This document shows, one piece after another, positions 1 through 40,703 of a DNA stretch of 64,000 bases. The notes below the pieces were generated by a model. It worked only from the letters and a program-made list of their open reading frames with translations, had not been told where the DNA came from and made no database searches. The position numbers and the translations under genes are program-made. Source of the stretch: Euglena gracilis (Eukaryota); assembly GCA_039621445.1 (NCBI GenBank), contig CP154954.1, positions 34,445,737-34,509,736 on the forward strand, written 5' to 3'. How positions within the stretch are numbered: the stretch's first letter is position 1; each line of letters opens with the position of its first letter.

Positions 1-339
1 AAGGATTTGTCTCAGAGCAAAGCTGTGGGCACTGTGTGTGCCTATATGTTCGTGTGCTGTGTTGTGTTGTGTTGTGTTGTGTTGTGTTGTGTTGTGTTGT
101 GTTTGTGTTGCGTTGTGCTGCGTTGTTCTGTGTGTGTGTGTGTTTCTGTTTGTACGTTGTGTGTATGTGTGCACACGTGTGCGTGCGTGCGAGGGTGTAT
201 GCACGGACAGGGTGTCACCAGAAATTGATTGCAGTGATGCCACCACAAACCTGGGCAAAACAGTGGTGACCAAGTTGGAAGTAGACCTATCCCAACCTCA
301 GCAACGGTCGGCTGCAAAGAGGGAACATGGCCGTCCCGG

Positions 340-3300
340 GCAGGGGGACCTCCGGGCTGCGGCGAACACTGCCCAGCCGGACCCACTCCGCCTCCGGGAG
401 CTCCCACGGCTGGGCCGCCTGGCGCATCACCGGCAGGCTGGCGGGCCACTGCGGGTGCACGCCGAAGTCGAACACCCCCACGGGCACGATGGGCCGGGGG
501 CAGGGGCGGCGCACTGTTGTGACCCGGATATCACAACCCCCTGCCAGGACATTAAAATCAGAGGTGCACGCCCCCCCCTGATGGAATCGCAAAAAGCAAA
601 TCACGGAAAAAATATCATCGTGAAATATCATTGTGTGGCAATTTTTTTTGTTATTCAGTGTGAACCATCATTTTCCCAAAAAATTCGTCCAAAATGCAAA
701 AATTTTCGGCGCAAGCGCCAGAAGGAAAATTTTGATGTTTTGGGGGGTCCCGGGTGATCCACCCCTTGGCAGGGGGGTCAGGTGGGGGTGTCCCCCGGTC
801 CAGCAGGGGGTACACCCCGCACCTTCACCTTGAACGCCCTCCTTTTTTCGAACCCTGCCTTGCCCTCAGTGATACTCAAAGTGATGGCTGGACCTGCGTT
901 GCCGCCACCCCTGGGTTGCCCTCACGCCGGTGCGTCCCGCGGTGCCACTTGTCGTTGAGCGGCATCCTCAGGCTTCCCGTGGCAGTCCGCCATTCATGCC
1001 TGACACCATTTGCAGTCAATGGTTTCTCGCAAAAAAAAAGCAAAAAATGTGCATGCAACGCACACAAATGTGCACATGTATGTATGAAGCTCTCTGTGTA
1101 CAGAGCAGAAGATGTACCCTCCGACAGATTGCCACTTGAAAGGTTGACCATTGCTGGGGACTTTGACAACTTCTGACAATTACTGGTTGGCTGGCAATCA
1201 GCGACCAGCATGGGTAATCATTTGTCCTCCATAAGGTTATTATTCGAAAAATTGGTTAAAACCTGGGAGGGGATGGGGGGGGGGCTATTTTTGGGGGCTA
1301 TTCTTGGAGGTTTTGCGTCGAAAAAATGCATTTGAGCGTTTACAGCAAACCAAAAAAAATATTGATTGAAACCCCCCAGTGTTACATCACCGTGTAAAAT
1401 GGAACTGCTCAAGCTCAAGCTTTCCGTGGGGGGTCCGGCCGGCTGAGGGATGGCTGGTACCCGAAAACGGGCAAGCAACCCCAAATCCAGCTGGGTTGGA
1501 ATTTCCAACCAAATATTTGAGGTGAAACACCCCAAACCCCTCGAAAATACCACTTTGCGCCATTCTGTCCAAGTTCCAAAGTTTACGGTGCTTTGTGCCG
1601 AAAGCCATTTTATCCCAGTCCCAACTTTATTTCAGTGAACCCGCGGGGGTCCAAAGCCCAGATGGGACCTCCTGCTGGAAAAAAAAAACTCTAGCTGGCT
1701 GGACCCCCCGGGGGGGGGGTGTCCTCTCCGGCCGAAGGAAACCCCTGCCTGCCTGCCTGCCTGTCAGCATGCAACCCCCAAGCACAGCGTGGCGAACGGC
1801 CGGAAAGGCGGAGGCAAGGCGGCCATGGCGGGCCGGGCGGCGCGCACGGCGGTGATGTCGAACACGACGTTCCACAGCTCCGCCGGGGGCGGGGGCGGCA
1901 CGCGGCCCGTCGGGTCGGCCATCACCGCCAGCAGGTTGGCCGAGAGACCGGCCAGCGGGCCCCACGGCCCCTGCGACGCGGCGTTCAGGACGTCCGAGGC
2001 AGGCGCCGGGCCGGTGCGCATGGGGGCACCCCCCCCTCCCGGCCGTCACGGTGCAATGTGGTGTACTGGGGGTATCGGGGCATCGGGGCGGGGCCTGGCC
2101 CACCGTCTTGAGGCGCACCACGTGGGCGCGCTCCGTGTCGACGTGGATGTCGGGCCACACGCAATGGAAGCTGGTCTTGGCGCCGACGAGAGGTATATGC
2201 TTTTTGGAGTATGCGTCCATGCGCACACCTGTGCACATATTGTGTGTATGCATGTGTGTATGCATGTGTGTGTGTGTGTTTCAGTATGGGGTACACCATT
2301 CCGAAGGCAAGTTTGCGGCGCCAGAGCCCCTCGCCGGCCGGGGCAGTCCTTCTCCTTGCTCCAGCCGCTGCCGGTGAAGAGCAACAGCCGCAGCGGCCGC
2401 AGGCACGGGAACATGTCCAGCAGGATGCGGGCCCGGAACCGCCAGAACGCAAACTCGTCCCCGGGGACCGCCTGCCCACCAAGCGGGGGAGGGGGGGGGC
2501 GGAAGGTGGGGGCGACGCCTCCCGGGATGGCAATGCGTTGATGCCGGGGCCGTCGATGCACATCGGGGATGGCTTTGGGGTGGCGTGCAGAAGACAATGG
2601 ACCTTTGGGGTTGGGGGCGTGGACATCGGACGACGTCCTTCAGATCAAGCTTTGATATAAGGGCAGGTGGGAGGCCCCCCCCCCTTGGTCGGGGGAACAC
2701 CCCCAACTGAACCCCGAACACCTCCCCCCCCCCACCCTTTCTCCCCCCATAGGGGTTCCCTGGAGGGAACTAGGCTCAACCCGAGGAAAAATCGAAACTC
2801 CAAAATGATCAGCAGTGGTTCCGGTGATAATGGGTGTTTGGGGGTGGGGAACCCAGCTGACCTGGTCCCGGGGGCTGGTCGTACGCTTTGGCACCCCCCC
2901 AGTTCCTGGCATTGAGGCAATCTGGCCCCGAAAACCACGCCCCCCCCACCCCGATTTATGCTGAAAAATCGCCAAAATTTTGCTGTTCGGGGGTGTTGAG
3001 CAGCGGTGGTTCCGGTATATGCCCCAAAAACTGTCAGTTATGCAAAAAAAATCGATTTTTGGACCCAAATTTGCCCTGGCCAGCCCAAATCCAACTCATT
3101 TTTGCCAATTTTTTTACGCCAAAAACCCATCACCATCCAGCTGCCCAAAGGACAGCTGGAAAATAAGTAAAATTCGACGATGGGGGGGGAGGGGGTCCGG
3201 GGCTGGAAAAAGGCTGCTGGCTGGCAGCACCCCCCCCCGGGGGGGATGGGGTGCCCTTTGGCTTAAGAGACGCCCTGGGGGGGGTCTGCAGCCCAGTTGG

Positions 3301-4680
3301 GAGTGCTGGCAGGAAAAAAGGTGCTGGCTCGCCGGACCCCCTGCCAGGGGTAGGTTGGGTCCGGTTTGAGAAATTCCCTGATTTAGAACTCACTCAACTC
3401 ACCGATGATGGTGATGTTCAAAATAAAGGTTGCCCAAGGTGTCCTTTGCCACTTTCCAAGCTGTTCTGCGGCCCATTGGACAGGCTCACCGCGGTAAACC
3501 ACGGTGAGTGTGCCGACCGTCTTTCCTTTCCGTCTGAGCAGGGGGACCCGCGGCGGCGTTGTGCAACAGCTCGTTGGGGGGCTGGGCCAGGGGCTCCCCC
3601 TGATGCGCCGGGCTTCACTGACATGCCGTTCCAGCGGGCCCTCAGCCGCCCAAACCGTTCCCCCACAACGTGTGAAGCTGCAGGAATGCCCGCCTCCCGG
3701 CCGACTGGTCAAAAAAGAACACCCAGTTCGGGCTCTTGGGAGGGTTCCCATGAAAATAGCAACACGGTAATTGACTTTTGGGACATTGTGCAATATTGCA
3801 CATGATGTCTTTGAATGTCTGCACCTCGAAGGCGATGAAAAAAATTTTCTCTGCATTCTCTCTGGTGAACAAAAAATAGCTTCTTTTGGCAAAAAAATTG
3901 TCGATGAACATTTTGGGGGATTCACACCTTGCCTTGGTGACATGACAATCCGCACCACCTGTTGGAACGGAGGCCCTGCTGGGCACACTGCGGAGCAAGC
4001 AGGTCGATGTCCTCCGTGTACGGGTGGCGCCACCGCTGCGTGTCGCGGCATCGGTCCCTCCCCCCGTCCCACCGGCAGGGAGGCAGGGATTGCATGGCGC
4101 TGCGGTGGGCAGTGCAGGGTGTGGCGCTCCACCAGCGTGAGTGGTCGCCCAGCGCGGTGGCACGCCGCTGGCCCCAGGGCTGCTCACCGGGCCTTGCCAA
4201 AGGGGGGGGGGGCGTGCCCATGGCAGAGTGCTTCCCTGCCCCCCAGGGGGAGGAAAGCAACCTGGAGCCTCAAAAAAAAAAACGCGACACAAAAAAAAAC
4301 AGAAAAAAAACACAAATAAACGCAAATAAACACAAAAAAATCACAAGTTGCATGTAAAATGCTTCAGGAGCTCCTCTAAAACGTGGAATTATTCCAAAAC
4401 CGGAAACGTTTTCCCAGCAACAATCGGGAATCACCAGGAGAAAAAAAGACTTTTTGTGTTAAAAAACACAAAAAGAAACACACAAAACACACACACACAC
4501 CAAAATTGAAAAATGCAAAAAAACCCACATTTGACCCCCCCCCAGTGTGGACCCCTGCCCACACCTTGGGCAGGCCTGGCCACAGCCTCACAGAGGGTGG
4601 GGGCCAGCTCGTCAGGGACCTTCAGCTTGCCGGTCGGGGTGAGGAAGTCCCAGCCGCCCATGAGGCTCGAATGGGTCAGC
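340..4680 (-). CDS. Exons encoding an archaeo-eukaryotic primase (AEP/PrimPol-like) domain
   Basis: Exons 4680-4582, 4169-4111, 4025-~3985, ~3585-3550, 2471-2340, 2178-2101, 1994-1839, 977-917 and 495-~340 give LTHSSLMGG..GKLKVPDE..CEAVAACHRAGRPLTLVERHTLHYPYTEDIDL..PPNELL..FWRFRARILLDMFP..TGSGWSKEKDCPKTSFHCVWPDIHVD..WNVVFDITAVRAGSLRMPLNDKW..EGRPIVPVGVF. This has AEP motif I (DxD), motif II (SxH), a candidate motif III Asp and the LRMP..K motif. Confidence 0.8.
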
Positions 4681-7600
4681 CTGCAGGGGGACCGGGGAAC
4701 AAAGGGCAGGGCAGAGGCGGTGGTGGGCGGAAAACAGCTGCAGGTTGCAGCTGTTTTAACAGCAATGGGCAGAAAGCCATTTTCTCAACAAGCAAATCTT
4801 GGTTCAAACGGGGATCAGGGTGTTGCTCAAAGACTCTCTGGGGGGTCCAGCTCAGAGGCTTGGAAAATGGAAAAAGGCTGCTGGCTGACCCCCCCCACCA
4901 GACCCGGGGTCAAACTGGGTAAACCATCCCCCAAATAACCCCCCCCCCCATTGGGGTCTGACTTCGAAAAAAAAATAATACCCCCCAATCTGCGACTGCA
5001 TTTGAAAATAAGAATTCACGGCAATAAATGACCAAAAATGAGTTTCTGTGGTCTGGCCTCCAAAAAAACATCAATTTTTTTGGCAAAAAAATGCAGAAAA
5101 TGACCAAAAAGGTTGGTTTTGGGTGTAATTTGGGGTCTTATGGATTTTCGAATAATAATCCAAGGCCCAAGCCAGGGGGGTTTTCCAAAAAAAACCGAAA
5201 CTCCAAAAAAAAAAGACTTAAAAACCTGCTAATCCATTTTTTTTGACCCCAAATAATCCCTGGTCAGCCCAATCCGACCTATTTTTGCCCATTTAACCCC
5301 ATTTTTTTGCACCTAAAATCCATAACTGTCCAGCCGCCTTCGGGTGGCTGCAAACTAAATAAAACATCGATGGGGGGGCTAGAAAAAGGTTGCTGGCTGG
5401 CTGGACCCTGTGGTCAAATTTTCTTAAGCAACGCCCTGAATAGGGATACTAATTCAAAAAAAAGGGCGCCACCTTGATGATACCCCAAGCAGAATGCAGA
5501 CATCCACCGAGAGCTGTCAGGTAGCCAACCAAGCGTCGATCCACGGGACGGGGATGGGGTTGCCTCAAGACTCCGGCCACCGATGCCACGTTGGGGGCAG
5601 CCCCCCTGGCCCAGTCCTTCTCCGCGTGGTCGCAGGCGCACGACCGGATCGCCCGCAGGGGCCGCTGGGTGGCGGCGTCGAAGGAGGCCAGGAAGGCGCT
5701 GTGGGGCGCGGCGGGCAGCGGGGCGCCCCCCGGGGTGGGGCACGGCGCCTCCCCGGGCCTCTGGCCATCCTGAGCTGACAATTTGTTTCAAAAAATAACT
5801 TCTGGGGGAAATTTGTTGAGCTCTGACTTCCATTTTATTGAAAAACGCTTGGACGATACTACGAACACGAATATACCAAAAAAAACAGGTGCGTAATTGC
5901 ACCAACAATGGAACACCAAAATCCCCCTGAATGAGATCCTGGCAAACCCAATAGAATATCAACTGAAACTCTCCCAACACCCACAAAAACGTTTTTTTTT
6001 TCACAACCCTCCTTTTAAAAAAAACTTCCAGGTGCGACTTTGTCCGAACCACACACACCCCTACACCACTGCCCAACGTCAGTGGAGCGCCGTGGTTGGG
6101 GGCCACCGTTGCCGAAGCGGCCCCCAGCGCCGGGGCAGCCGTGGAGGACGTGGCGGCGGCGGGGACGGGGGCGGTGGGCCGGGGCTGTTGATGGGCTGGC
6201 AGCGGCAGGAGGGCGGGGGGCTGGAAGTGTTGGGGCACGCCGCTGGGGGCAGGGCCGGGTGGGGAGGGGGGCAGGTGGGGGAGGCCGGCGAGCTGAAGCC
6301 AGGGGGAGGGAATTTGCAGCAAGGCTCTTCAAAATAAGCAATGCACAAAATGCAAAAAAATGCAGGTTTCATGCAAATTCCTTTAGGGGCTCCCCGTGGC
6401 TGTACACTTCTCCACTGGAGAGGACTTTTAAAATATTTACCTGCTCCAACAATGCAACACCAAAAGAAAATGTGGGTGCAAACTGCAAAACTACATTGGT
6501 TGTTTCACCAAATTGCATCCGCTTATCTTTGATTTGCAACTACTACTGAGGTGAATTAGGTCCAAAAACGTGAGGTATTGCAGCTTCCAGTTGTCTGAAA
6601 GTGGAGAAATTTTCCTGTGTTGCCTGCACAAATGCCCAGAAAAAATACGGAAAATATGCAAAAAATGCACAAAATGCGAGTTTTCAACTTTTTCTTTACC
6701 TTGCAAAAAAGGTGCAATTTTCAAGATTTGGATTATGCAAAAAAAATTGCAAAGTATGCAACTTGCATATCCCCCCTTGCTGAAGCGTCACAGTCAACCA
6801 GATGGGGGGGGATCCAGGGACTGCGAAAAGCATTTGATTCCGATTCTCTCCCAATTCCTCTGCTGGTTTTTTGGGGCCGTCAGCGAAGTATCAACAAATC
6901 ACAAAAGAAAGAGCGAGGCTGGCCTTCCTTCTGCATTGTCAACTGTGGGTGTCGGCGCTGGTGGGCATTTGTTGCAGAAACCCAGCCGCCCTTGCCGAAC
7001 GCCGTTGCCGGTTCACTGCATTCGCAACGATTATGCACATGGCGATCCCACAGATTGCGGAACTGACCGCCCGGACCATCCCATGTTGGTGTGGAGTTGA
7101 CAAGAAAGCGGCGAGGCAACCTCCCGGGCGGTGGCGGTGCCTTGCCAGGCGGAACCCCCACTATCTGGTCCAATCTATTACTCCCCTTCCCTTTTGTCAG
7201 GCGTGTTTGAGAACCTCTAAAGCACAACCAGTGTCCAGAGGGTGGACACTTTTTTTTCTTCAATTTTACTTAACAGTCTTTTTTTGGCTCCTTGGTCGAG
7301 GTGCTAAATCGGGGAGGGGTATTTGACCTGCCCCTCTATGGCGGCAATATGCCATATTTGCTTACGGTGGATTTGAGTGGGTCGATTTCGGAGGCACTGC
7401 TCTCTCACCCCTCCGTCCGACATGGTCGGGAGCATGGGAATGGAGGAATGGGCTCAGAGGAGAGGAACCCGGCGAAAAGCAACGGCCAACGCATCCAGCC
7501 CTGGCTGACAAAGCTCGGGACCAGAGGCAGGGGCAGGGGAACAGGGATGGGGGCCCTCTCAACAGGAGGGGGGGGGCATATCCTGCGTGCCACAATTCCT

Positions 7601-10322
7601 CGTTCAGGGTTTTAATTCTGGGATATATCGGACATGAGGTGACTTTAAAAAAAAATGCTGGAGGAATCTTACTCCAGCCATCCAGGCATCTTTGTCTGTT
7701 GGTTAATGGTAATGGCCGGGTTTGTTGCGACTCATTCTCCAAAAAATGTCCAAGATAAAGAAGCAGTGCACCAAACTTGGGGCATTTTCTTTGCGTGAAG
7801 GGCAAACCAATGTGCAACAGCCACAAAACAAGTCTGTACAGAAGAAACTGGAAAAAAAATAATACCAGAAAAACCCCAAGGAAAAATAAGGGCTGAAAAT
7901 TCCTTTTATTGGAAATACCCCTGTGGAATTCATCAAATGCATGTAATTTCCGCAACAACAAAAAACCGGTTGGCAGAACCAGCTCCACCATGGCAATGAC
8001 CCTTTCAGAACTGTTCTTTGGGATGTTTTCCAAAATAGCAGATTTTGGTTGCTGCTTCTTGGCAATCTGTTTGCGCGGAACCAGGGCGGATCAGGAAGCC
8101 CCGAAACCCTATGGGTAGCATAGGTGCGGGGTGTAACGCCTCACCAGGCCTTCCTGTGCAGCCTTGACCTCTCCAGATCTTCATTTGTGCTTGTCCTGCT
8201 GAATGGCTAGCATGATTTTGTTACCCTCAAAAATTCAGTACGCCTTTGTTTTTATATTTATGTTCACTTTCATAAACCAAACAATTTAGGTCACCAAGAT
8301 CCAAATTGACTCATCAAGCAGTGCTGAACCCCAAACCCCTGCCCGACCCCTGTGGGGTGGCCCTCCCCTGCTGCCGAACTATGCCGAAGGGCATTGCTCT
8401 TCCCTCTTCCATCCTGACTTCCATCGTTCTTCCCTGGGCAGAGTCCTTGGCAGGGGCATATAGACGGGCCGGGGGTTAAACGGGGGCTGTGAGACTGCGC
8501 AGGGCCGGGCGGGCGGGGCCACGAGGCTGGCGGCCACGGGCGGCGCGGCCAGCGGCGGGCAAGGCCACTTCCTCCGGGGTTGATTTGTGCATGCCGATGA
8601 TTCGGAACCTCTGTTCCTCGAAAGCGACAGGTGCCTGCTACGAGGTGCCCGCGCGCACACACGTGTGTGTGTGTGTGCGCGCGCGCGCGTGTGTGTGCGT
8701 GCGAGGTGACCAGGGCTGTCCGGGAAAGCCTGGGGGCTTCCCCCCACTGCCTGTGGGCTGGGCGGGGGCAGCACGGGGGGCCCCTGCTCCGGCCGCCGTG
8801 GAGGACGTGGCGGTGGTGGCGGCGGCGGGGGTGGGCCGGGGCTGCAGCCAGTCCGGCATCGGCAGGAGCGCTGCGGGCGGCGGAGGCGAGGGCACGCCGG
8901 GCCCAGGGCCGGGGGGGGGGGTGGACCCCCCCCTGTCATGTGGACGGCCCCGCCCCCGCGAGCTGGTTTAGGCTGCCGGTGGCACACCAGTGGGACAAGG
9001 CTTGGGCCGCACGGTTGGGGGGGGGGGAAGCCCGGCCCTGGCGGACGCCCACTGGGGCGGGGCCGGCAGGGCGGACAGCAGCCTGGCCCGGAGCCAGGGA
9101 GGGAGGAAGGGAGGAAGGGGCTCCCCGGCACGGCAGTGGACAGCCCCCCACCCCCCTTGGTGCTGTGCATGACAAATGCCTGGGGGGAGCAACCGAGGCG
9201 CCGCCACCACCGGACCGGGGCCGGGACCAGAGGCCTCCTCGGGGGGAGGGTCGCCCTCCCTGGACGGTGCCTGTGCGAGGAGGTGGGCGGCATATCCCGC
9301 GTGCCACAATACTTCGTTCAAGGATTTTAATTCTGGGTGGACAAAGATACCTGGAGGACCGGAGTAAGATTCCTCCAGCATTTTTATTCTTCTTCAAAAA
9401 TCACCTCATATCCAAGGTGTCCATTGGTTAATTAATGGTGGGGACCAGGTTTGTAGCGTATTCTCCAAAACAAGTCCAAGACAAAGAAGCATTGCACCAA
9501 GCTTGGGAGCTATTCTTTTTGCGTGAAGGGCAAACTCATGTAAACAAAATCACATCTGTACAGAATGTACCAAACCCAAGGAGAAATAATCATCAGGAGC
9601 TGAAAAAAAATTGTTTTTATTGAAAATACTCCCTGTGAAATTAATTGCACATATATGCATATTTTCCACAACAACAAACAACAGCATTTTTGCCACAGAG
9701 CTTATGAGTTAAGGCGTTTTTGGGAGGATTCCACTTCAGTGGCTGGAATATCAGAATCCCTTGTTGGCTCAGCATCGAGGGGGGGGGATAAATGGCATTT
9801 CCAGGACCTCACATAATGAATATCCCAAATGAGTGTGCCGAACTGTGGTAAAAAAAAATGCAGATTTCTTTGGGGTTTGGCTTGTTTTCCACGTGGAAGT
9901 GTGGAAGTGAAAGTGGATTGGGAGCCTTCCAGATCCACCGTATCAAAATGGGAGACAACTCAAATAAAACAAAATGTTGCATTTGACAAAAACACAAAAA
10001 AATCACATATTTCTTGCCCGTAACCTTTTTCCCCTGCGTTTTGCCCGAGCGTTTGCCATCTGGGGTAAGAAAAAGACTTAAAGACCTATCCCAAAGGGCA
10101 TCGTCTTCCCTGGGCAGAGTCCTCGGCAGGGGCACAGAGACGGACCGGGGGTTGCGCGGGGGCTGCAGGACTGCGCAGGGCCGGGTGGGCGGGGCCACAG
10201 GGCCGGCGGCCACGGGCGGCGCGGCCAGCGGCGGGCAAGGCCACTTCCTCCGGGGTTGATTTGTGCATGCCGATGATTCGGAACCTCTGTTCCTCAAAAA
10301 GTGACAGGTGCCTACGAGGTGC

Positions 10323-10389
<67 letters not shown>

Positions 10390-10402
10390 GTGTGTGTTGT
10401 GC

Positions 10403-10465
<63 letters not shown>

Positions 10466-13400: not shown

Positions 13401-16400
13401 TTTTCATTCAGAAGGGTAAATGTCAGCCTCATTCTGGTTTTTGCAATTTGGCAATACGAGATAATTAAAAGGTATTATGTCAGCCTGAGGAAGCGGATAA
13501 CCGCTTCATATTTGCTCTGCTTTTTTTTGCAGGTTTTACGCCAATGTCATGTCGAAATGTCCTTCCAAGTGAAGCACGGGGAAGTGAACAGAAGGTGTGT
13601 ATCGTTTCGCCTGTTCTACCTTTCGTAACTCGTGCAATTGTCTCCACGTGGTTTGACGTATTTGCATTATGCACTTGGATAATGACATTCAATTTCTGTT
13701 CAGTTTGTCCAGTTTTTGTTATCTTCATAAATATTAACGTCCTTCGTTGTTATTGGGATTGGAATATCGTTTGGTGATCATTGTTGATCATTTCAATTCA
13801 TACCATTTTTTTACGGATTCTTTCAAAGCGGTTTTACGCTTCCTTTTTGGTGTGCAAACATTATGCATATTTTTTACATTACATTCTGTATAATTCATTG
13901 CGTTCAGTTTTCGTTGCACATCTCCTGCTTTTGAAGCGGAATGCAATATTTACCGCTTCCATTTTATAATTTTTCTGTTTCGTTCCTTCGGGGCCTACGG
14001 CAGCAGAAACAACGCTTGTTTTTGTCGGTTCCTCCTGTTCATGTATTTCTTGATTGGTTTTGTTGATTTTACCAGAATTCGAAAGTAAATTGGCCTTCTC
14101 AGGTCTGTTTTCGACTGTATAGGTCTCCTTTACTGTGAGCCAAACGTCCACCGGAATTGGCCAAAATCAGAACCTCTTCAAAAAAAATCGAAAAATATGA
14201 CCCTTTTTTGGAAGTGGTTTCCCGCTTCCTCTTCCGTTTTTAGAGCACCAGAATTGTAGGTCGACTTACGCCGCCTGAGTCAAACATGTTCAAAGAAGAT
14301 TGCTTCATTGCTGTTGATGAGAAAGAAAATGATGCAAATGTCAGCAGGCGTTGGAAATTTTTTGGTGTCCACATGTGAACCACAAACATTACTTTGGTGT
14401 CCACAGGTGAACCACAAAAAAATTTTGGTGTCCACAAGTGAACCACAAAAAATTTTTTGGTGTCCACAGGTGAACCACAAAAATTTTTGTGGTGTCCACA
14501 GTGAACCACAAAATGACAACCTTGGTGTACCACACTAAATGAATGTCTCCCCCCCCCGTCAGCTTTGCTAGTGCCTTGCCGACCAAGCCGATCCTCTATT
14601 GAAAATGGTCATTTTCGGCCCTCTGGCGTCTTCGGTGCCGGGGGCGTTATGCTAGAGCACTGAACCCCTCCTCCCAAATAACAGTTGCAGGGGGAAAGCC
14701 GAGAGAGATTTCTCCAAATGACTTTGCCCCCCCCTTCACAAAAAAAAGTGAAAAATGGCGCTTCTTTTTTGGAAAAGCAGGAGTGGGTAGGACCCACTGC
14801 TACCCATTTCTTAAAGACCCCGGGGGGGGGGGTCCAGCCTCCGGCTGGCAAAAAGGCTGCTGGAAGGAAATGAGCTGCTGGCTGGACCCCCCGGGGAAAA
14901 TGGGGGGGGTCTGGGACTTGTGGGGGCTGGGCTAGGCCAGGGTTCGATATAAGGACAGGTGGGGGGGGGTGGTCCGGACCCCCCCGCTGCGGGCCAGGAG
15001 GGGGGGGGGGGGGGGGGACACCCCCCCCACCTAAACAGGTGCGCGGTCAGGGTTGCCGAATTTTCGGCCCGGCGCGAAGCGCCGGGCCGAAAATTTTTGA
15101 CCCCCCAAAACGACCAAAAGTGCCATTTTGGGCACTTTTTGGGCAAAAATGTACCAAAAATGCAAAAAATTTTCGGCGCGAAGCGCCGGAGGAAAAAATT
15201 GACCCTTTTTGGGGGGGGGTCAATTTTTGCCCCCGAGGGTCGGTCCGGACCCCCCTGGCAGGTGGGGGGGGTGGTCCGGACCCCCCCCTGCGGGCCAGGA
15301 GGGGGGGGGGTGGGGGGGGGACACCCCCCCCACCTAAACCATGTACGCCCTCCTTATATCGAACCCTGGGCTAGGCTGGGTCGATGAAAAACAAAAAAAA
15401 TTCTGAAAATTCTTCGCCATTTTCGACATTTTGCTGGATGGAGATCAAGGCTGGATCGGGACTGAAGGAACAGCCTAATAATTAATGAAAAAATGCAGGG
15501 ATAGGTGAGCTGGGCAGCCCATTTGGCTGGCCAGCCGGCGGCCGGCTGGCCCGGTTCCGGCCGGGCTAGATACAACTTTATTTCACTCGACCCCCCCCCC
15601 CCCGGGGGCTGCCAGCCCGAATTTGGGCTGCTGGCTGGATTTGAGCTGCTGGCTGGCTGGACCCCCCCCCAGGGGATAGGGTCCCCTCGTAAGAAAACTG
15701 CTGGGCGCATCTCGCACTGGAGCGTTTTTTCTTTGTCGGCGTGCGCAAATGCGCACATGGACGAAGAAAATCAAATGAAGCGTGGGAGTGTATTGCATCA
15801 TGTGGCCCGCTGACCACAGGGATTTTCAAGCTAGCAGACACATCCATTTTCAGCCAATGAACTGTGCCTTATTTTTTGGACTATTGAAAATACTGGGCGT
15901 GAAGGGCACTTCCAAACTCGCCGAACGAAGCATTAAATTATATCACAACTAATAAAAAAATAAACACCATTTGACAACGAATAGCTTTTAGGAAAGTGGT
16001 CAGGCGGTCTGTCAATGGTTTTGATAATAACTTCGCAAGGGGCGGGGCCAGAAAGATCGGCCCATTAACTTTGCAGGGGGCAAAATTATTTGAGCGATTT
16101 GGTTCATTCACCCCAAAATCCGACCCCCCCTGGGTAAAAAAATGTCCTACCCCCCTGACTGCCAAGCACCCTCCCCCCAGGGGGACCCTGAAAAAAACCC
16201 ACAACCTTTTGGAAAACATAAGAACATCCTTCTCATAGCAAAACAGGACTAAATGATTGAGTGTGCCTGATGCCAGCTGCACTTTTTGCTGCAGAAGAGT
16301 GGGAGTTTTGCCTTCCCTCACTTATTTTTGGCCACTTTTTGCCATTTTTGTTGCCTTTGAAGTCAAAAGTAGCAAAACGTGGCCCAAAATGGCCTGAAAG

Positions 16401-17339
16401 TGGCCAAAATGGGTAAACATGGCCAAAGCTCACTTCATCTGCTGAAGGCAAGAGCGTTCTCTGGGCAGCGGCCACATGGCGAGGTGCCAGAGGAAAATAC
16501 GACGTGTGCGAGGAGAACTGACGGCGAAATGGGTGAACAGTGGTCGGAATGAGACCAGGAATGTTTTCATTCAAATCAGCAAGAGCGGTCAAAAATCGTC
16601 AAAAAAAAGCAGCAAAAAAAATGTGGCCAAAAGCAACAAAAAGTGCCACAAGTCTGCAAAAATGGCCCAATGCAGACAAAAGCATCGTGCCACAAGTGGA
16701 CAAAAGTGGCCAAAAGCACACAAAACCATCAAAAAATGGAAGAAAGTCGGCAAAAATGCCCAAGAAGCAGCAACGACCCAACAAAGGTGGTCAAAAGCAG
16801 TCCAAAGTTGCAAAAAAAAACTGGCCAAAAGTCGGAAGGTGGCCAAGAGCAGACAACAGCATAATAAAAAAAAACAGCAAGATGTCAGTAAAACTGGCCA
16901 AAAGCAGCAAAAAGCAACCAAAAGTCGGCAAAATGGCCAAAGGCAGTCAAAAAAAATGGCAAAAAATGGCAATTAAGTGACCACAATCAGTTGATAGCAG
17001 TAGAAGCAGCCTAAAAGTGGCAAAAGATGGCCAAAAGGACCAAAGGCTGCCTAAAAGGCCAAAAAGTGGGCAAAAGTGACCAAAAGCACCTGGAAGCTGC
17101 CAAAATGGCTAAAGTGGCCAGAAAAGGCTGAAACGCCCAAAAGTGGGCAAAATAGGTAAAAATAACAAAAAAAATGAGCAAACATGCTTAAAATTGTGCA
17201 TTGTATGGCTGTGATGTGCGCTCATTTTTTGTTGTGTTTCCCCCACCTGTGACCGACTACTTGCCAACCAGGGCCAACTGTGGCACCAAAATGGGAGTCG
17301 CCATAAATGCCTGGTTGTGTGTGTGTGTGTGTGTGTGTT

Positions 17340-17384
<45 letters not shown>

Positions 17385-20300
17385 ATGTGTGGGTGGGTGG
17401 GTGGGTGGGTGGGTGGGTGGGGGGGGTGGTGGGGGGTGGGGTAGATTGGGGAGTTAACGTAGGAAGAGGCTCAAGCTCGAACGTTCGAGCTCGAGCTTTA
17501 AGCCTTTTTGAGCCCCCCCCCCCTCAGGGGGCTTAAAAAACCTCCTCGAACCACCTCGAACGACATTCGAGGAGTCTTCCGAGTCTCCTCAAATGTGCTT
17601 GAGGAGGTTCGCAAGCTCCAGAGCCTCCTCCTACGTACACACATGGGGGTGCTTTGGGGCCCTCTGTGAAAAGTTGCCTACAAAACAACTGGCACAACAA
17701 AGGGGATTTGCACACACAGGACATATGTATTCAGGGTCCTCCGAACAGTTGCGTACAAAGGGGCATCGGCAACAAATGGGGTTTGAAATTAGTTGAATAT
17801 GTATGTATATATATATGTATATATATACATATATACATATATATACATACATATATATATACATATATATATATAATATATATATATATGGCAGCTGGAG
17901 TTTACTTCCCCCCCCGGGGGTCCAAATAAAGACTCCAGGGGGGGGGGGTCAGAAGTTTTTTTTGCGTTAATGATGGAGTAGGGTTAGGTGCGCGCATTCG
18001 GCCTAACCCTGACCCTAACTTGTACACCTAACACCCGTCTATAAGTTAGGCCTAACCTTAGGCCTAACTTGCTCACCTAACCCTGTTCCATCCTTAATGC
18101 AAAAAAAACTATTTTGACCCCCTCTTGTCTTTACGTGGACCCCCCCGGGGGGGCAAGTAAAATCTAGCTGCCATGTATATATATATATATGTTTTATATA
18201 TATACATACATACACACACAGATATATATATATATATATATATATTTGGAGTTTCATGGTCCAATGTTCGAGGTGGTTCCAGGTGGCTCCAGGAGACTCT
18301 TGAGCCTCCTCGAACGACCTCGAATGCAGGGGCAATAAAAAATCCTGAATAAACCGGAAATAAACTGGAATAGAAATTGTCAGAATATCCAGAATATTCC
18401 GGAATTTCCGTGAAAAAGCGCAGTGGAAAGTATGAAACATTTTCATGTAAAGGTGGCTTTTTGCGCTTTATTTGACTGCCAACGCTCCATTAAAGGTGGC
18501 CAAAAAAAGCTGCCAGAAGTGAATCTGACAGGAGATTCGGGTTCCACCATTCATAGGGTTTGGACAGCCCTGGGGTATTCCGGTTGGAAAAAAATCTCTC
18601 TGGCACTTCGCACCGATCTGAAAACGGGTTTTAACCTTTTTTCTTGCTAATCTTGTTCCAAAAATGCCAGGTTTCTGGGATCAGCTGGTGCGAAACTGGG
18701 AAAACCATTCCGCAAACTGGGGTTGCAAGAGTTTCCACTAGAAATTGCACTGCCCAGCTTTGGACTTGCTACAACCCAGCTTCTCAGGGTTTGCAACTCC
18801 TTAAGCAAAGACCTGACCCAAACACACACACACACACACGCACACACACTTGGCTCAGCTTCCAGTGTTTCGGACATGGGCGACCACCCATGATCCTCCT
18901 CACCAGGAAAACAAATTCTTGCATTGTCGTCGCCGCCTGGGTTGCTTGCAGCAGTGGGAATATCGATATACAAAATGTTTTCTCAGGCTGGGCAGATGTA
19001 TAATTTTTAAAAAAAATAATCAACGGGGACAGAAAGAATTTACAGGCCACCACCCACCCACCTACCCGCACGCATACACTCATGCATGCAATACCCACAC
19101 ACATACACTCATGCATATGATACCCACACACATGCCCACACACACACCAAACAAAACAAACACACACCACACAGTAACACTATCACATAACACACCCAGT
19201 GCGGCTTCCTGCACCTCGAAGATGGGCGACCATCGCCCTTCCTCAGCAGGCTCAACAGGGGAGTAAATCGCTGGGGAGGATGGAGCCAGGGGGTCCTCGT
19301 CGTCGTCATCCAGCACCATGATGGGGATGGGTCGCACAGGCTGTGTTCGAGATGCCGGTTGCTGTTGGGAAGAAGAGAGGGATGTAGAAAAACAAGAAAA
19401 GGCTGAGGTGTGCCGGTTGGGCACTGTTCAGCAGCCGCAGAGCACTCGTGCACACAGCTCAAGGCTCACAGGCACACAGGTCAACAAGACAGAGATTCAC
19501 ATGCGTCCGCATGAGTGGTTTAGTGCTTTGATACCTAAATACCATTTTTTTGGATTTGGTGGATGGCACGGACTTATACAGGACACGCCTGAGAATGCTG
19601 CCGAAGGAACGTATCGATGGAGGCACGGGATGCGCCGTGATCCCCAGAGTCTGAATCCGAGTCCGATGCTGCACACAGCCTTTGTCGCCCTGCAGGCACC
19701 CCTGGGGGTCTGGCTGCAGACTTTTTCCACCTCATTCCAGGTTTCCCATTGAGTGCGGTTGGGGTAAAAAATCTTCAAATTCCAAATTCTTCTCAACCCC
19801 AACCCAAACCCTCACCCTCACCCAACTTCGGTCCACATGCAGTTCATTTTGCTGGGAAAACCACGGAAATCAAGGGAATGGGGGGGGAGCTAACTATGCA
19901 TATCCTTTGTGCCGGGCAGGGGTTGTGCTAGAAACATCTTCCTCATCACATACTTATTATCATCCTTACCACATCACTTATCCGTGCTTGGGGGGAGATG
20001 GCTGTTGCCGATGCAATTGATTCTGACCCTCCCCCCAAAAAGGTGTTGTGGTCGAGATCATGATTGCCGCTTCGTCGTGGCGGGTGGAGTGTGTTCTCTC
20101 CTGCGCTGCCACCTGCCACACGGCGAAAGGGTATGTGGCACGGACGCTCCTGCGTCCAGTGTCCCCGGCCACCCATTCAGGTTGACCGTGGACCCCCAAA
20201 GGCATACAGCTGCCACGGACGGGATGTGAACGGGTGAGGCGGGGGCACCGGCTGCTCGGCGGCCGCCACCGTGCTTTCGATGTTGGCGAGGGTGGTGAGG

Positions 20301-23300
20301 GAAAGCACCTGCACCCAGCGCGGCTCCACGCACCGCGGCCGAGGGCCTCGCCGAGAGGGGGGGGGCTCAAGGGGCCAACCTCCTTCCCGTCCCATCACAG
20401 TTGCCGCCTAGGGCCCAAAATGGAACTTTGGCATTCCTCAAAAGCTCGCTTGCTTGCCCATCATTGATGTGGATGAGCAAATCCATAAGAACCCCCCCCT
20501 GCCATAATTGCCCCCGGGGTGCCCCAGACCACGCGTGCCAAAACTGGACTGGGAGGAGGGCCCCGAGCATGAGTGGTAAAGGTCCGCGTACTTCGCCCAC
20601 GGCCGCAGACAGGAGCAGGCCAGCGCTGCTGGCAGGCACGGGCGATGGCACCCACCACGCCCCCCTCCCCACTGCTGTCCGCCCCTGTCCACCCCCTACC
20701 CCTGGAGCCGGGCCTGGCCTCCAGGCCGGGGGCGAAGAGGGAGGCGTAGACGGGGTGGGTGTGCACAACGAGGGTGTCCAGCAGGATCCTGATGGGGGGA
20801 GGCAGTCCCATTGAGCCCCCGGGTTGACCCCACCGCCTGGTTTGGTGTTCCCACACAAAATGTTGCCCCGACGTTCTGGATGCACAAGTGCGAGGGGAAT
20901 TTAGGGTTACCGTAAGGAGTAAGGGAATTGATAGGGGAGGCCCCACCCAAGCGAAGTTTTGCGAAAACTTTTCGTAAAACTGCATGTTCTTGATGGGATT
21001 CTGCCGTTGGGGACACCTCGGTCCAACCTTAGACGGCTGGGAACATCCGAGAGATTCCGAAAAAATGCAATTCTGAGACCTTCATACCTTGTGGCATAAT
21101 CAAAACTCTCACATGGATTATTGTCCATTTTCACAGAAATATTCAGGGTAAAGATCCTGGGTCACAAAATCCTAGAAAATGGTCTGGTGCTTCTGTTGTC
21201 ACAGTTATTCTTCCATATTGGACAAAATGCTCTGTAAAGCTTCAAATTAACATTGGAACTTGGCGCTGTACAGGCCAAATGAACACAATTAGCAGGCTTC
21301 CATTTTGGGGTTTCTCCGCATCGGCTCGAATGATAATGTTTTTTTGTTTTAATGTTGATGTTTGTTGTACCTGACAAATTAAAAACAGCCACCCACCTCA
21401 AATAGGCTTTGCCGCAGTGCAAATGGCAGGACACATGGTGGACATGCAGGAGCACCCGGGGGCACACCAGGCCGCCAGGCGCGCCAGGGGGGTGGGGGCC
21501 CCGCGGACGCGCTCCTCCACGAGGGCCACCACCTCCCCGGCCCACTGCGGGGCCAGCGCCCCGCCGGCCTTGGCGACCCGGATGATGGCGGCAGACCGTC
21601 GCGGGGGTTGGGAAGGGAGGCGGGGGCCCAGGCTGGAGGTGACCCCCCCCGCGTGCCCGGGAGTGCCGGGACAGGCAGGCACCCCTCTGCACCTCTCTCT
21701 CCCCCTGGGGTGGGGTCGGGGCCTGCCTGGTTGTGGCCCAGAAAAGTGCCAGAAATGGACTCTTCTGGAATTGCCTTGACTGTGTGCCCAGGCACTTCTG
21801 GCCATAAGCCCAACCCCCCCCCCCAGGTGCAGATCTGGGTGCTTTGGAATGCCTACCCCCACCTCAAAATTCAGCCTGTTGGGGATCCCACCTGCCTGCC
21901 GGGATCAGGCCGTATTTTACCAACCCCGGGGGGAGGGGGGGTCCAGCGTGCCTATGAGTGCCTGCCTGGGCAGGCACTAACCCCCCCCGGGGGGGGGGGT
22001 CGAGTTTCGGCCTGTGCCCAGGCACATTCCTTTGAAAATAGGCCATTTTTGGCTCCCCGGCGACTTCGGCGGCGGGTCTGTGCTAGGGCACTTTTGACCG
22101 TGTGTCCGACCCCCCCCCCCGGGGGGTCGGATTTGGAGTGCCTTGGAGTGCCTGCCCAGGCAGGCACCCCCCCCCCCGGGGTGGGTCGGCACCCGACTAA
22201 AATACAGCCTGGCTGGGATGGCAGGAGGTCCCAACCATCTTAATCACGGCACATGTAAACGAGATGTGTTGATTAACAAAAAAAATCTAACAGGCGCACA
22301 CAGACGATGAGCACACAGACGGCGAGCACAGGTGCTCATCGTCTGTGCGCACTGGTTTCGTTTGGAGGGAACAGAAAAGCAAATTCCCAAACGCCCAAGA
22401 TGAGGTTTCCTGAGCCTCCCCATGCGTGGGGGTAAGCATGTTTTGGGCCGGGCCGGGTTGGACATGACAGGATTTGCTGCGAACCCAGGGGCCAAATCTG
22501 GGAACAAAAATTTGAAAGGACATGCAAGCTGAACCTGCTGAAAGGCCAAAGATCAGCCAAATGTGGTAAATCATCAGGTCAAACAAAGTTGGGGATTCAC
22601 ATTCAAAGAAGAGATAAGCCTTGGGTAGAAAATCATTCACATACCGCCCAAACCCCAGACAAGAGAAATAATGGACAAAGGGGATAATATTTTGATAGCA
22701 CATTGAGCAGATGGATGCTTGTGTGCGTTTGCGTTAAACATTTGTGAGTGTTTGCACGGGAGCACGAAACCGAATCGCATCCAATTGACACCAGGAGACC
22801 AACTGCCTGGCCAGTCTCACATGGATCCGGCCGCCGCAACGCGAAGAGGTCCTGCCGGAAGGCGTCCAGAGAACCCAGCGGCGCGGCCATCACCCCGGGA
22901 AGAGGGTGTGGGGCAACATGGGGCGGGGGAAGAGCTCCGACCCCCCTGGCGGCGCAGAGCAGACCGTCAACGTTGGTTGGGGCAGTCCGGGCAACGGAAT
23001 CGGGGCCACCGCCAAAAAGAGGGATATCTGAGGATGCAGTGGTGCCAGGACCATACCCGGGGCAGGCCAGCCATTTGGGTGGGTGGGCGCTTTCCGTTCC
23101 GAAGGCAAACCAAACCGTCGTCCCGTTTCGACCCATGGCACGCTGTCCCGGGAGCCTCGATTCTCATTTTTGTTGCCTCCAAATGTGCCACAGGGGTAAA
23201 ACTTTTGGGATGTAACAAAAACGGTTGGGTAGTACAGGTTCCTGGTCAAAGAAACAGAGATATGTTTTTGATAGCAAAACGTTATCCACATTGGTTTGTT

Positions 23301-24107
23301 TGGCTGCCTCCCATTCCCGAGTGGGGTTGACCCCCAGCCCCCCCCCCCCCCCTGCATTGTATGCCCCCCTGTAAAAGTGGTGTCCAGGGCGTATGGGCGC
23401 AGCGGAAAGACCAGACGGAGAATGGAGCATCCCCCTGGCACTGGTCCCTTGGCTGGTATTGCGCTGGATCTAAAACGGTTAACGGTGGTGCCCTCCACGC
23501 ACAAGGAGGATTCACCACAGAAGAATTTCAGCTGAAAAATAATACATGTTGAAAATAGAAAAAGGTGGTGGGCAGCGCTCGCCGTCCCCCACCCCAGATA
23601 GATAGCCAGGTTTCCTGCTCAGCCTGGCTTTTTATCTGGAGAATAAATCCATAAATCAAAAATTTGAGAAGACAGAATAAATACAAGAGTGTAAAGGGGC
23701 TGTATGCGTGACCGCCCTCCCAGCACCTCTGAGCTTGAACTACAACTGCATTGGCAAATTCACATCGAAACAATTTGCTATTCTGCTGAGGGAACTCAAC
23801 CATAAAACCAGACATATGAGTTGCATGTACCATGTATGCAATTTTCTGGGAGGGTTGAGAAGCCATCTCTCTCCCTGCCCTTCTTGAGAGACCACAATGC
23901 AACCCTCCTTGGCAAAACGGCTGTGCTGTGAAATCGAGGTGGCGCCGTGTCCGTTGCCTCGTGTCTGTTGGCGAGGGGTGGCGGAGTGCGAGTGCAATTG
24001 GACACCGGATGGCACCTCGCTGCGGGGCCGTCCACGGCGTGGAGAGTGTGGAGGGGCGAATGTGCTGTGAACTGGACAGAGGGTTCGGGTTCGGGCGTCG
24101 CAGGCAT
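340..24107 (-). CDS. Gene A: multi-exon gene encoding an N-terminal CID-like domain, a low-complexity linker and a C-terminal AEP (primase-polymerase)-like domain; 3' end probably runs off the window
   Basis: ATG at 24107 directly follows a pyrimidine tract plus AG (cttctttcttcag-t-ATG, MPATPEPEPSVQ). GC-rich exons splice in frame within the CID part (20250-21600) and the AEP part (340-4680). Linker exons lie near 19200-19330, 18850-18960, 11590-11710, 10100-11180, 8425-9270, 6100-6310 and 5580-5770. Continuity across 12100-18800 is inferred, not proven. Confidence 0.6.
496..916 (-). other. Nonconventional (euglenid-type) intron
   Basis: The 5' end accCAGGGGTGGCG pairs with the 3' end CGCCGCCCCTGccccc. 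There is no GT-AG. Removal gives EG|RPIVP in frame. Confidence 0.8.
978..1838 (-). other. Nonconventional intron
   Basis: The 5' end gccCGGCCCGCCAT pairs with the 3' end ATGGCGGACTGccacg. Removal gives DITAVRA|GSLRMP. Confidence 0.8.
1995..2100 (-). other. Nonconventional intron
   Basis: 5' ggcCAGGC and 3' GCCTGcctcg. Removal gives LKTV|DVLNA. Confidence 0.7.
2179..2339 (-). other. Nonconventional intron
   Basis: The 5' end ggcCGGCGAGGGG pairs (with G-U) with the 3' end CCTCTCGTCGgcgcc. Removal gives KEKDCP|KTSFH. Confidence 0.8.
4026..4110 (-). other. Nonconventional intron with CAC/GTG instead of CAG/CTG
   Basis: The 5' end gccCACCGCAGCG pairs with the 3' end CGCAGCGGTGgcgcc. Removal gives LVERHTLH-Y-PYTEDIDL. 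Confidence 0.7.
4170..4581 (-). other. Nonconventional intron
   Basis: The 5' end ggcCAGGCCTGCCCA pairs with the 3' end TGAGCAGCCCTGgggcc. Removal gives CEAV|AACHR. Confidence 0.8.
7575..11045. repeat. Intragenic tandem duplication (~1.7 kb unit) of exons and introns
   Basis: 8422-9271 is near-identical to 10099-11045 apart from the length of a (GT)n tract. 7575-7960 is a more diverged homologue of 9290-9680. Confidence 0.9.
12759..14548. mobile_element. Non-autonomous DNA transposon (1.79 kb) with 20-bp TIRs and subterminal repeat arrays
   Basis: Perfect TIR AGACATTCATTTAGTGTGGT at both ends, flanked by C8 on the left and C9 on the right (compatible with an 8-bp TSD). Arrays of GGTGTCCACAGGTGAACCACAAAA lie at 12790-12920 and 14363-14512. 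The interior is AT-rich with no intact transposase ORF. Confidence 0.85.
14938..15368. mobile_element. hAT-like MITE (family 1)
   Basis: TIR CAGGGTTCGATATAAGG / CCTTATATCGAACCCTG with a perfect 8-bp TSD GGCTAGGC. It is inserted into a copy of MITE family 2. Confidence 0.92.
16325..17180. repeat. Degenerate ~10-bp periodic minisatellite (GGCCAAAAGT-like)
   Basis: Recurrent GGCCAAAA/GGCAAAA/GCAGCAAAA units, which explain the K-rich ORFs. Confidence 0.7.
17890..18172. mobile_element. Foldback MITE embedded in a (TA)n microsatellite
   Basis: Long imperfect TIRs beginning GGCAGCT, internal GGGTTAGG/CCTAACCC motifs, and (TA)n on both sides. Confidence 0.8.
20250..22900 (-). CDS. Exons encoding a CID/RPR (CTD-interacting domain)-like helical domain
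   Basis: Spliced sequence: LDAFRQDLFALRR..SAAIIRVAKAGGALAPQWAGEVVALVEERVRGAPTPLARLAAW|ILLDTLVVHTHPVYASLFAPGLE|ALACSCLRPWAKYADLYHS|WCVEPRWVQVLSLTTLANIES. It follows the Pcf11/Nrd1/SCAF8 pattern (KLxxxYLLDSIxK..Y...F...L ... L..W...F....L..I). The junctions at introns 20789-21467 (GT-AG), 20628-20719 and 20335-20568 are in frame. Confidence 0.65.
20335..20568 (-). other. Nonconventional intron
   Basis: 5' gctCGGGGCCCTC and 3' GAGGCCCTCGgccgc. Removal gives YHS-W-CVEPRW. Confidence 0.65.
20628..20719 (-). other. Nonconventional intron
   Basis: 5' ggcCAGGCCCGG and 3' CCGTGCCTGccagc. Removal gives PGLE|ALACS. Confidence 0.75.
21906..22211. mobile_element. hAT-like MITE (family 3)
   Basis: TIR CAGGCCGTATTTTA / TAAAATACAGCCTG; TSD GCCGGGAT versus GCTGGGAT (7/8 match). 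Confidence 0.8.

Positions 24108-24687: not shown

Positions 24688-40703
<16,016 letters not shown>

Follow-up and report, generated by a model that had tools for sequence, protein, structure and literature searches.

A CID-like gene and an AEP-like coding region downstream of it in Euglena gracilis: at least two genes favoured, no fusion demonstrated

Introduction

The CTD-interacting domains (CIDs; PF04818) of Pcf11, Rtt103, RPRD and SCAF4-8 are N-terminal domains of about 135 residues, each followed by a disordered acidic Ser-rich region. Archaeo-eukaryotic primases (AEPs) are described in trypanosomatids as PPL1 and PPL2; TbPPL1 and TbPPL2 have motif I at residues 165 and 193, respectively, in TbPPL2 it is of the DxD form, and both proteins carry a UL52-like CHC2 zinc finger (PMC3898837). 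Genes of Euglena gracilis are interrupted by introns of more than one kind: a published survey gives GTGTG as the consensus of conventional donors, CCAGG at +3 to +7 as that of nonconventional introns and a C-rich tract with CAG as an acceptor consensus common to introns and outrons, the longest of the 28,337 introns surveyed being 8.2 kb (PMC11170887). Here we consider a stretch of 64,000 nucleotides of E. gracilis contig CP154954.1 (assembly GCA_039621445.1, positions 34,445,737 to 34,509,736; ‘the window’), whose minus strand carries a CID-like part and, about 15 kb downstream of it, an AEP-like part. The original prediction, made by splicing the sequence by hand, had joined the two parts into a single protein.

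On balance we favour at least two co-oriented genes (two, or three) with no demonstrated fusion; the fusion interpretation itself is undecided on present evidence and leans negative. The first gene (gene 1) would be trans-spliced to a spliced leader (SL) at 22946 and translated from ATG 22890. A CID-like domain of about 135 residues would be encoded by its exons 1-5 and continued by an acidic Ser-rich linker, and its frame would run on past exon 8 (19196) into further exons. The second (gene 2) would be a separate nuclear gene, starting from acceptor 4681 and ATG 4661 and encoding an AEP-like protein of about 443 residues.

Materials and methods

Three contig runs (X1, X2 and X3), presumed to be RNA-like, and a raw RNA run (X21; four raw RNA runs were picked, by species label alone) were aligned to positions 3900-23899 of the window, a stretch that includes just exons 1 and 2 of the AEP-like gene. 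Statements about RNA joints rest on the 15 joints listed; at least 112 further joints, 736 loose ends and 4403 pieces exist, and contigs are unable to demonstrate the absence of a joint. Coding-like exons were called from GC content at third codon positions (GC3), codon scans and inspection of splice signals, with coordinates fixed by string search; the window is rich in repeats and in GC (0.42-0.64 per 2 kb). Queries of profile, fold and sequence databases were contiguous translations of the window, i.e. single exons or pieces of open reading frames (ORFs) rather than spliced proteins; on the AEP side they were single exons of 44-102 residues and had low power.

Results

The CID-like gene

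The same chain of eight exons, running from 22946 to 19196, was assembled in all three contig runs (790 nt in X1, 755 nt in X2, 870 nt in X3). All seven joints are also spanned by raw reads of X21, one to four each (a single read at 20333->20568, 20627->20720 and 21586->22813; two at 20787->21467). The CID-like exons near 21.5 and 20.7 kb are thus real, spliced and expressed, and the spliced contigs point to a nuclear genome of euglenid type.

22813..22946, minus strand: CID-like exon 1, in contigs of X1-X3; upstream ORF from ATG 22919, main ATG at 22890
21467..21586, minus strand: CID-like exon 2, 40 codons, GC3 1.0; joints in X1, X2 and X3 and in X21 reads
20720..20787, minus strand: CID-like exon 3, with RNA joints
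20568..20627, minus strand: CID-like exon 4, with RNA joints
20246..20333, minus strand: CID-like exon 5, with RNA joints; the putative helical domain ends here
20054..20109, minus strand: CID-like exon 6, with RNA joints
19589..19667, minus strand: CID-like exon 7, with RNA joints; Ser/Asp-rich
19196..19361, minus strand: CID-like exon 8, acidic linker; frame open; donor CTGG|GTGTGT

The 5′-end of the transcript, as given by the contig ends, is at 22946/22945, and the contigs carry additional non-genomic letters there, 25 in X1 and 22 in X3. These letters are probably a spliced leader joined at the acceptor ..GCCGCCAG|G (..CCAG|G) of 22946. The first in-frame ATG of the mRNA is at 22890, 56 nt past the putative SL site; with the transcript beginning where it does, this is the start codon, and ATG 24107, which had been proposed as the start, falls outside the mature mRNA. 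The 5′ untranslated region contains an upstream ORF of nine codons from ATG 22919, whose stop overlaps the main ATG (..TGATG..).

Once spliced, the frame is open over 238 codons and one further nucleotide, up to the end of exon 8; GC3 of the exons is 0.62-1.0 (0.79 overall) versus an intron GC content of 0.55. Contigs end within exon 8 at 19201 (X1 and X2) or reach 19195 and continue with 76 unplaced letters (X3). The donor that follows exon 8, CTGG|GTGTGT, conforms to the conventional GTGTG consensus of E. gracilis (PMC11170887). Judged by their minus-strand ends, the seven RNA-proven introns comprise two GT-AG, one GC-AG and four nonconventional ones; introns 1 and 3, both nonconventional, begin with GGCCAGG, in agreement with the CCAGG consensus given for positions +3 to +7 (PMC11170887). 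The earlier remark that introns of non-GT-AG type interrupt the motifs is thus correct only in part; in the AEP-like part, GTGT../CAG borders prevail.

The N-terminal domain looks helical and Pcf11-like and is a putative CID, as judged by its sequence. It stands at the extreme N-terminus of the RNA-based product (ATG 22890), and its length and the acidic Ser-rich region after it are the same as in the described CIDs of Pcf11, Rtt103, RPRD and SCAF4-8. Its first ~135 residues seem to resemble a Pcf11-type CID; at mid-domain a putative Leu-Leu-Asp-(Ser/Thr)-hydrophobic helix precedes an aromatic-x-x-Leu-Phe one, as in CIDs of that type. A difference from those proteins is that no CID-like exon has a match in Pfam or among PDB sequences: Pfam gave no family for four of four ORF pieces and five of five exon pieces, all unspliced, and exon 2 had one unrelated match among PDB sequences (E 1.1). 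Weak Pfam matches to PBP_N, SpeFL and PDZ_assoc (E 0.83-5.7) were set aside as noise.

Some contigs leave the window. Contigs of X1-X3 match it as far as 22698, beyond which they run on over at least 255 letters that the window lacks entirely, and an X3 contig lying on positions up to 6135 continues upstream in the same way, again for at least 255 letters. A search of the window for five 30-mers from contig loose ends found none at up to four errors, only 10-mer seeds. These departures, at 22698 and 6135, hint that expressed paralogues, or alternative partners, exist at other genomic sites.

The AEP-like gene

The strings on which the original prediction of a primase domain was based were found by string search on the minus strand, all within coding-like exons: DID at 4011, SFH at 2172, VFD at 1865, with a second occurrence at 475, and LRMP..DK at 971. 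A model of seven exons, from 4661 to 287, connects them in one open frame of 443 codons ending with TAG at 289-287. GC3 is 0.80-0.93 in every exon, compared with an intron GC content of 0.55, and the model is self-consistent.

4565..4680, minus strand: AEP-like exon 1; C-rich pyrimidine tract and CAG acceptor at 4681, ATG at 4661, donor AAG|GTGTGG
3928..4235, minus strand: AEP-like exon 2; DID, then a Cys/His-rich stretch; in phase on both sides via GTGT../CAG
2297..2471, minus strand: AEP-like exon 3, holding ..FTGSG..
2101..2228, minus strand: AEP-like exon 4, holding SFH; the following intron begins with GGCCAGG
1768..1994, minus strand: AEP-like exon 5, holding VFD; 3′ boundary uncertain
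894..999, minus strand: AEP-like exon 6, holding LRMP..DK; AG and GT borders
287..577, minus strand: last modelled AEP-like exon; TAG at 289-287, then CA-rich sequence

The first three junctions are in phase and have GTGT.. donors and CAG acceptors. The fourth intron starts with GGCCAGG and ends with CCTG plus 5 nt, as is typical of nonconventional introns; confidence is lower for the last two junctions. Two alternatives, an exon at 3603-3550 and an acceptor at 2518, were rejected in favour of the direct junction 3928->2471, which is in phase and has consensus sites. In the model the strings take residues 108-110 (DID), 213-215 (SFH), 280-282 (VFD) and 322-329 (LRMP..DK).

Gene 2 most likely begins at acceptor 4681 and ATG 4661. 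Acceptor 4681 conforms to the acceptor consensus of E. gracilis introns and outrons (PMC11170887), and the in-frame ATG is the seventh codon, 19 nt past it. Methionine makes up 10 of the 443 residues of the model, so that such an ATG would be seen in an internal exon with a chance of about 15%.

With regard to what gene 2 encodes, the order and spacing of the strings fit a divergent AEP or PrimPol-like nucleotidyltransferase without a UL52 zinc finger, and we rate an AEP as slightly better than an even bet. Motif I (DxD/E), motif II (SxH) and motif III (hD) have predicted counterparts, as strings, in this order within about 200 residues (DID 108, SFH 213, VFD 280). Counted singly, each of the strings is at about its chance level (SFH 1 observed versus 3.9 expected, VFD 2 versus 1.6, DID 1 versus 0.40, LRMP 1 versus 0.27). 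The complete ordered set within 3.5 kb appeared in none of 400 Markov-1 simulations, a figure that overstates significance because the strings were picked after the fact and real motif definitions are much looser.

Comparison with described AEPs gives a mixed picture. Three acidic/His motif strings in AEP order and a euglenozoan-type host are shared with PrimPol and the trypanosomatid PPL1 and PPL2, and the predicted motif I is of the DxD form, as in TbPPL2 (PMC3898837). However, the model has no counterpart of the UL52-like CHC2 zinc finger carried by both TbPPL1 and TbPPL2, and its motif I residue is 108, compared with 165 and 193 in those proteins (PMC3898837). A search of the three minus-strand frames below 4500 for the pattern C..H..C..C gave eight matches, none of them in a coding-like exon of the model, and hence no UL52-type finger; this holds within the window, as an exon past its left edge is possible if TAG 289-287 is spliced out. 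The position of DID at 108-110 is close to that of motif I in human PrimPol and PRIM1. Further features shared with PriS and PRIM1 would be a Cys-rich stretch just past DID and, some 55-60 residues on, a hydrophobic strand that terminates in (S/T)G. Unlike in these proteins, the His of the SG..G.H motif is off its expected place in the gene 2 model.

The AEP assignment has to be set against an absence of AEP-family sequence or profile similarity to single-exon queries in Pfam, PHROGs, PDB, HMMER, word-indexed and ESM Atlas searches. Pfam gave no AEP family for five of five unspliced ORF pieces and PHROGs no family for eight of eight exon pieces; no primase was found among PDB sequences for four of four exons, the one match being unrelated (Pol gamma B, E 0.11). 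Both ESM Atlas queries were without a usable match, word-indexed protein searches with the SFH exon, the VFD exon and CID-like exon 8 gave nothing, and of the 264 pattern matches that the DID exon gave in a metagenome scan none was confirmed. When 1.84 billion proteins were scanned with HMMER, the 91-residue DID exon serving as query, one match was returned at E <= 0.001, to a protein (P0001) that is not an AEP; thus neither a PPL nor a PrimPol sequence was matched, nor was a canonical PriS or PRIM1 orthologue, which would have been expected to appear easily. P0001 (630 residues, Logan-derived) scored E 1e-4 with 38.6 bits summed over repeats, the best BLAST piece having 30 bits, and it aligns with the RW.HP....LL.P stretch spanning DID. 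The match is probably a chance one, yet it cautions against taking DID as motif I. P0001 itself is a seven-fold repeat with a unit of about 70-75 residues (DYLPNG ... RW.HP ... LL.P.YA) and has a weak HicA-like Pfam match (E 0.007).

An alternative is that gene 2 exists but encodes a lineage-specific protein other than an AEP, in which the four strings are look-alikes due to chance; we see this as having somewhat less than an even chance. The failure of the Pfam, PHROGs and PDB searches, a repeat protein as the sole HMMER match and the missing finger are all as this explanation would have it; moreover, the residues ahead of DID differ from the hydrophobic strand that we take to be usual for motif I, and the distances DID-SFH (105 residues) and VFD-LRMP (42 residues) are both presumably longer than typical. 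It has more difficulty with positions 108, 213, 280 and 322, which fit the AEP core in place and order, with the Cys/His-rich stretch after DID and the ..FTGSG.. strand about 60 residues on, which we take to be features of eukaryotic PriS, and with the outcome of the simulations; PrimPol-like proteins are also very divergent.

The interval and the question of one gene or two

Between exon 8 and the AEP-like exons lie repeats, candidate splice sites and coding-like segments.

12571..18573, unstranded: high-copy repeats, contig depth tens to thousands; any exon here would be hidden
15287, minus strand: acceptor with a C-rich (0.75) tract and CAG, in the phase of exon 8; 22 codons, then a stop
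12078, minus strand: consensus acceptor in the phase of exon 8; 42 codons, then a stop
11553..11702, minus strand: candidate exon, GC3 0.96 in its first 26 codons; acceptor AAG|GG in the phase of exon 8
8428..11050, unstranded: tandem duplication of a Pro/Ala-rich segment with a CA microsatellite (8428-9276 versus 10104-11050, 84-99% identity)
6059..6326, minus strand: third, diverged Pro/Ala-rich copy, transcribed; all frames GC-rich, no ATG in any frame (6326-6060)
5564..5769, minus strand: strong coding-like exon without Met or stop, 60 codons, GC3 about 0.95

The statement that no obvious terminal exon occurs in the interval does not stand, since the two phase-fitting consensus acceptors, 15287 and 12078, precede early stops (after 22 and 42 codons). 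The candidate exon 11702-11553 is covered in X2 and X21; the mean depth of the bin 11237-11903 is 0.36 in X1, 1.19 in X2 and 0 in X3. The CID contig is deepest in X1 and X3 (50 and 30, respectively), the runs where this candidate is almost uncovered.

The tandem duplication is recent and has a period of about 1.78 kb, with a long CA/TG microsatellite after each GC-rich, Pro/Ala-coding-like copy. The third copy (6119-6270) has about 75% identity by blastn and 65% in an ungapped family table. Mismatches between the 6.1-kb and 8.8-kb copies are distributed over codon positions as 16/61, 13/61 and 12/59, i.e. with no third-position bias; the Pro/Ala-rich ‘exons’ are therefore without evidence of protein-level constraint. 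The exon starting at 5769 and reaching to about 5600 could end at GG|CCAGG (5612/5611), at GT 5590 or at GC 5564, or read through to TAG 5452-5450.

We infer that genes 1 and 2 are separate from the following observations. Among the joints listed in the aligned stretch, none bridges the CID-like and AEP-like parts, as is the case with contigs, and none connects exon 8 to anything downstream. Exact words of 340-4300 are present at fractions of 0.26 in X1, 0.15 in X2 and 0.14 in X3, where full cover of the exons predicts about 0.25; in X2 and X3 about 55-60% of the AEP-like exons are covered by exact words and the CID contig is complete, which suggests that the downstream mRNA is rarer there. 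A direct intron from exon 8 to 4235 would span 15 kb, compared with the 8.2 kb maximum among the E. gracilis introns surveyed (PMC11170887). Coding-like minus-strand segments at 24957-24694 and 27435-27223, upstream of the CID-like gene, the nearest about 1.7 kb away, indicate that same-strand neighbours at such a distance do occur in the window. Finally, the ATG past consensus acceptor 4681 would place DID at residue 108, where stand-alone AEPs have motif I.

Several observations weigh against this separation. The CID-like frame is open on a consensus donor at exon 8, so that further exons must lie downstream; none was identified. That donor (phase 1, next letter G) fits acceptors 11702, 4235 and 540 in phase, and depth per exon in X1 is of roughly the same order for the CID exons as for the 5.7-kb and 4.1-kb exons. 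The exon 5769-~5600 can be joined in frame to 4680 through the GC donor 5564 or through a GGCCAGG-type 5′ end at 5612; CCAGGGGG of the 5612 site is complementary to CCCCCTG just ahead of 4681, and such a junction would make ATG 4661 internal. Among the joints and loose ends listed no SL-bearing read was seen at 4680, and among the loose ends listed no poly(A) site was seen.

These observations could be combined into one long gene, in which a CID-like N-terminus, an acidic Pro/Ala-rich linker and an AEP-like domain form a single protein; we regard this as unlikely. The linker would be assembled from exon 8, possibly 11702-11553 and others, the 6.1-kb segment and the exon 5769-~5600. The open frame and the GTGTG donor at 19196 ask for such exons; the acceptor at 11702 is in phase and continues with G and then a letter other than T, in agreement with the X3 piece reaching one letter further, to 19195. 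The 5769 exon, with neither Met nor stop and an in-frame path to 4680, and the segment 6326-6060, with no ATG in any frame, likewise speak for one gene. X2 and X21 cover 8569-9235 and 9903-12570 and not the putative introns 6568-7234 and 9236-9902; 7235-8568 has no cover in X2 and 0.02-0.11 in X21. However, no contig and none of the 15 listed joints bridges the parts, the 11702-11553 bin is at 0.36 in X1 and 0 in X3 where the CID contig is at 50 and 30, and the X3 contig on positions up to 6135 extends upstream into letters found nowhere in the window. The Pro/Ala-rich copies lack third-position bias, gene 2 has its own ATG past acceptor 4681, and acceptors 15287 and 12078, in the phase of exon 8, lead to early stops. 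The alternative splice sites tried were so numerous that chance alone should yield in-frame solutions, and these carry little weight.

It could also be that gene 1 ends soon past exon 8 inside the repeat block, e.g. through acceptor 15287, and that the Pro/Ala segments together with the 5769 exon make up a third unit, with the AEP-like gene again separate. The in-phase acceptor with its 0.75 C-rich tract and CAG would serve well here, and the middle region, covered in X2 and X21 and hardly in X1 and X3, behaves unlike the CID exons. On the other hand, repeat depth would hide any joint in that place, the 76 extra letters of X3 exceed the ~30 after which a unitig running into a high-copy repeat would be expected to break, and no start codon was identified for a middle gene; we hold this arrangement to be decidedly unlikely. 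A true CID-AEP fusion protein is less likely still, in our estimate, and its boldest form, with splicing across the 15-kb repeat-filled interval that brings exon 8 in phase with acceptor 4235, has similarly poor prospects.

Other features of the window

A repeat of very high abundance, containing long runs of G/C, is present at 14572-15905, 21900-22250 and 23331-23352, with contig depth in the thousands; raw reads with poly-G or poly-C ends number in the hundreds there, and the repeat yields false opposite-strand and long-skip joints among 15.0-15.4, 21.98 and 23.33 kb. The plus-strand reading of 16446-16976 is an array of low complexity, rich in Lys/Gln and strongly AT-skewed; it resembles a degenerate tandem repeat more than a gene.

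More coding-like segments were seen on the minus strand, at 24694-24957, 27223-27435, 39679-39879, 42627-42794, 46574-46738 and 47077-47253, the one at 24.7-24.9 kb being an FG-repeat-like stretch. Altogether, 16 coding-like segments are on the minus strand and six on the plus strand, at least four of these six being antisense shadows of minus-strand segments; this distribution suggests a same-strand gene cluster.

Discussion

An architecture can be an artefact of hand-splicing over 15 kb of repeats, and the present locus is to be read with this caution in mind. We found no paper pairing ‘archaeo-eukaryotic primase’ with ‘CTD-interacting domain’. If the fusion were true, euglenids would have a primase-polymerase that is attached to RNA polymerase II during elongation, e.g. 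for repriming at transcription-replication conflicts; the combination of an AEP with a reader of the Pol II carboxy-terminal domain would be a new coupling of DNA or RNA synthesis to transcription. What is solid is a CID-like euglenid gene whose RNA-supported model combines conventional with nonconventional introns, and beside it stands a candidate zinc-finger-less AEP-like gene without relatives detectable by exon-sized queries.

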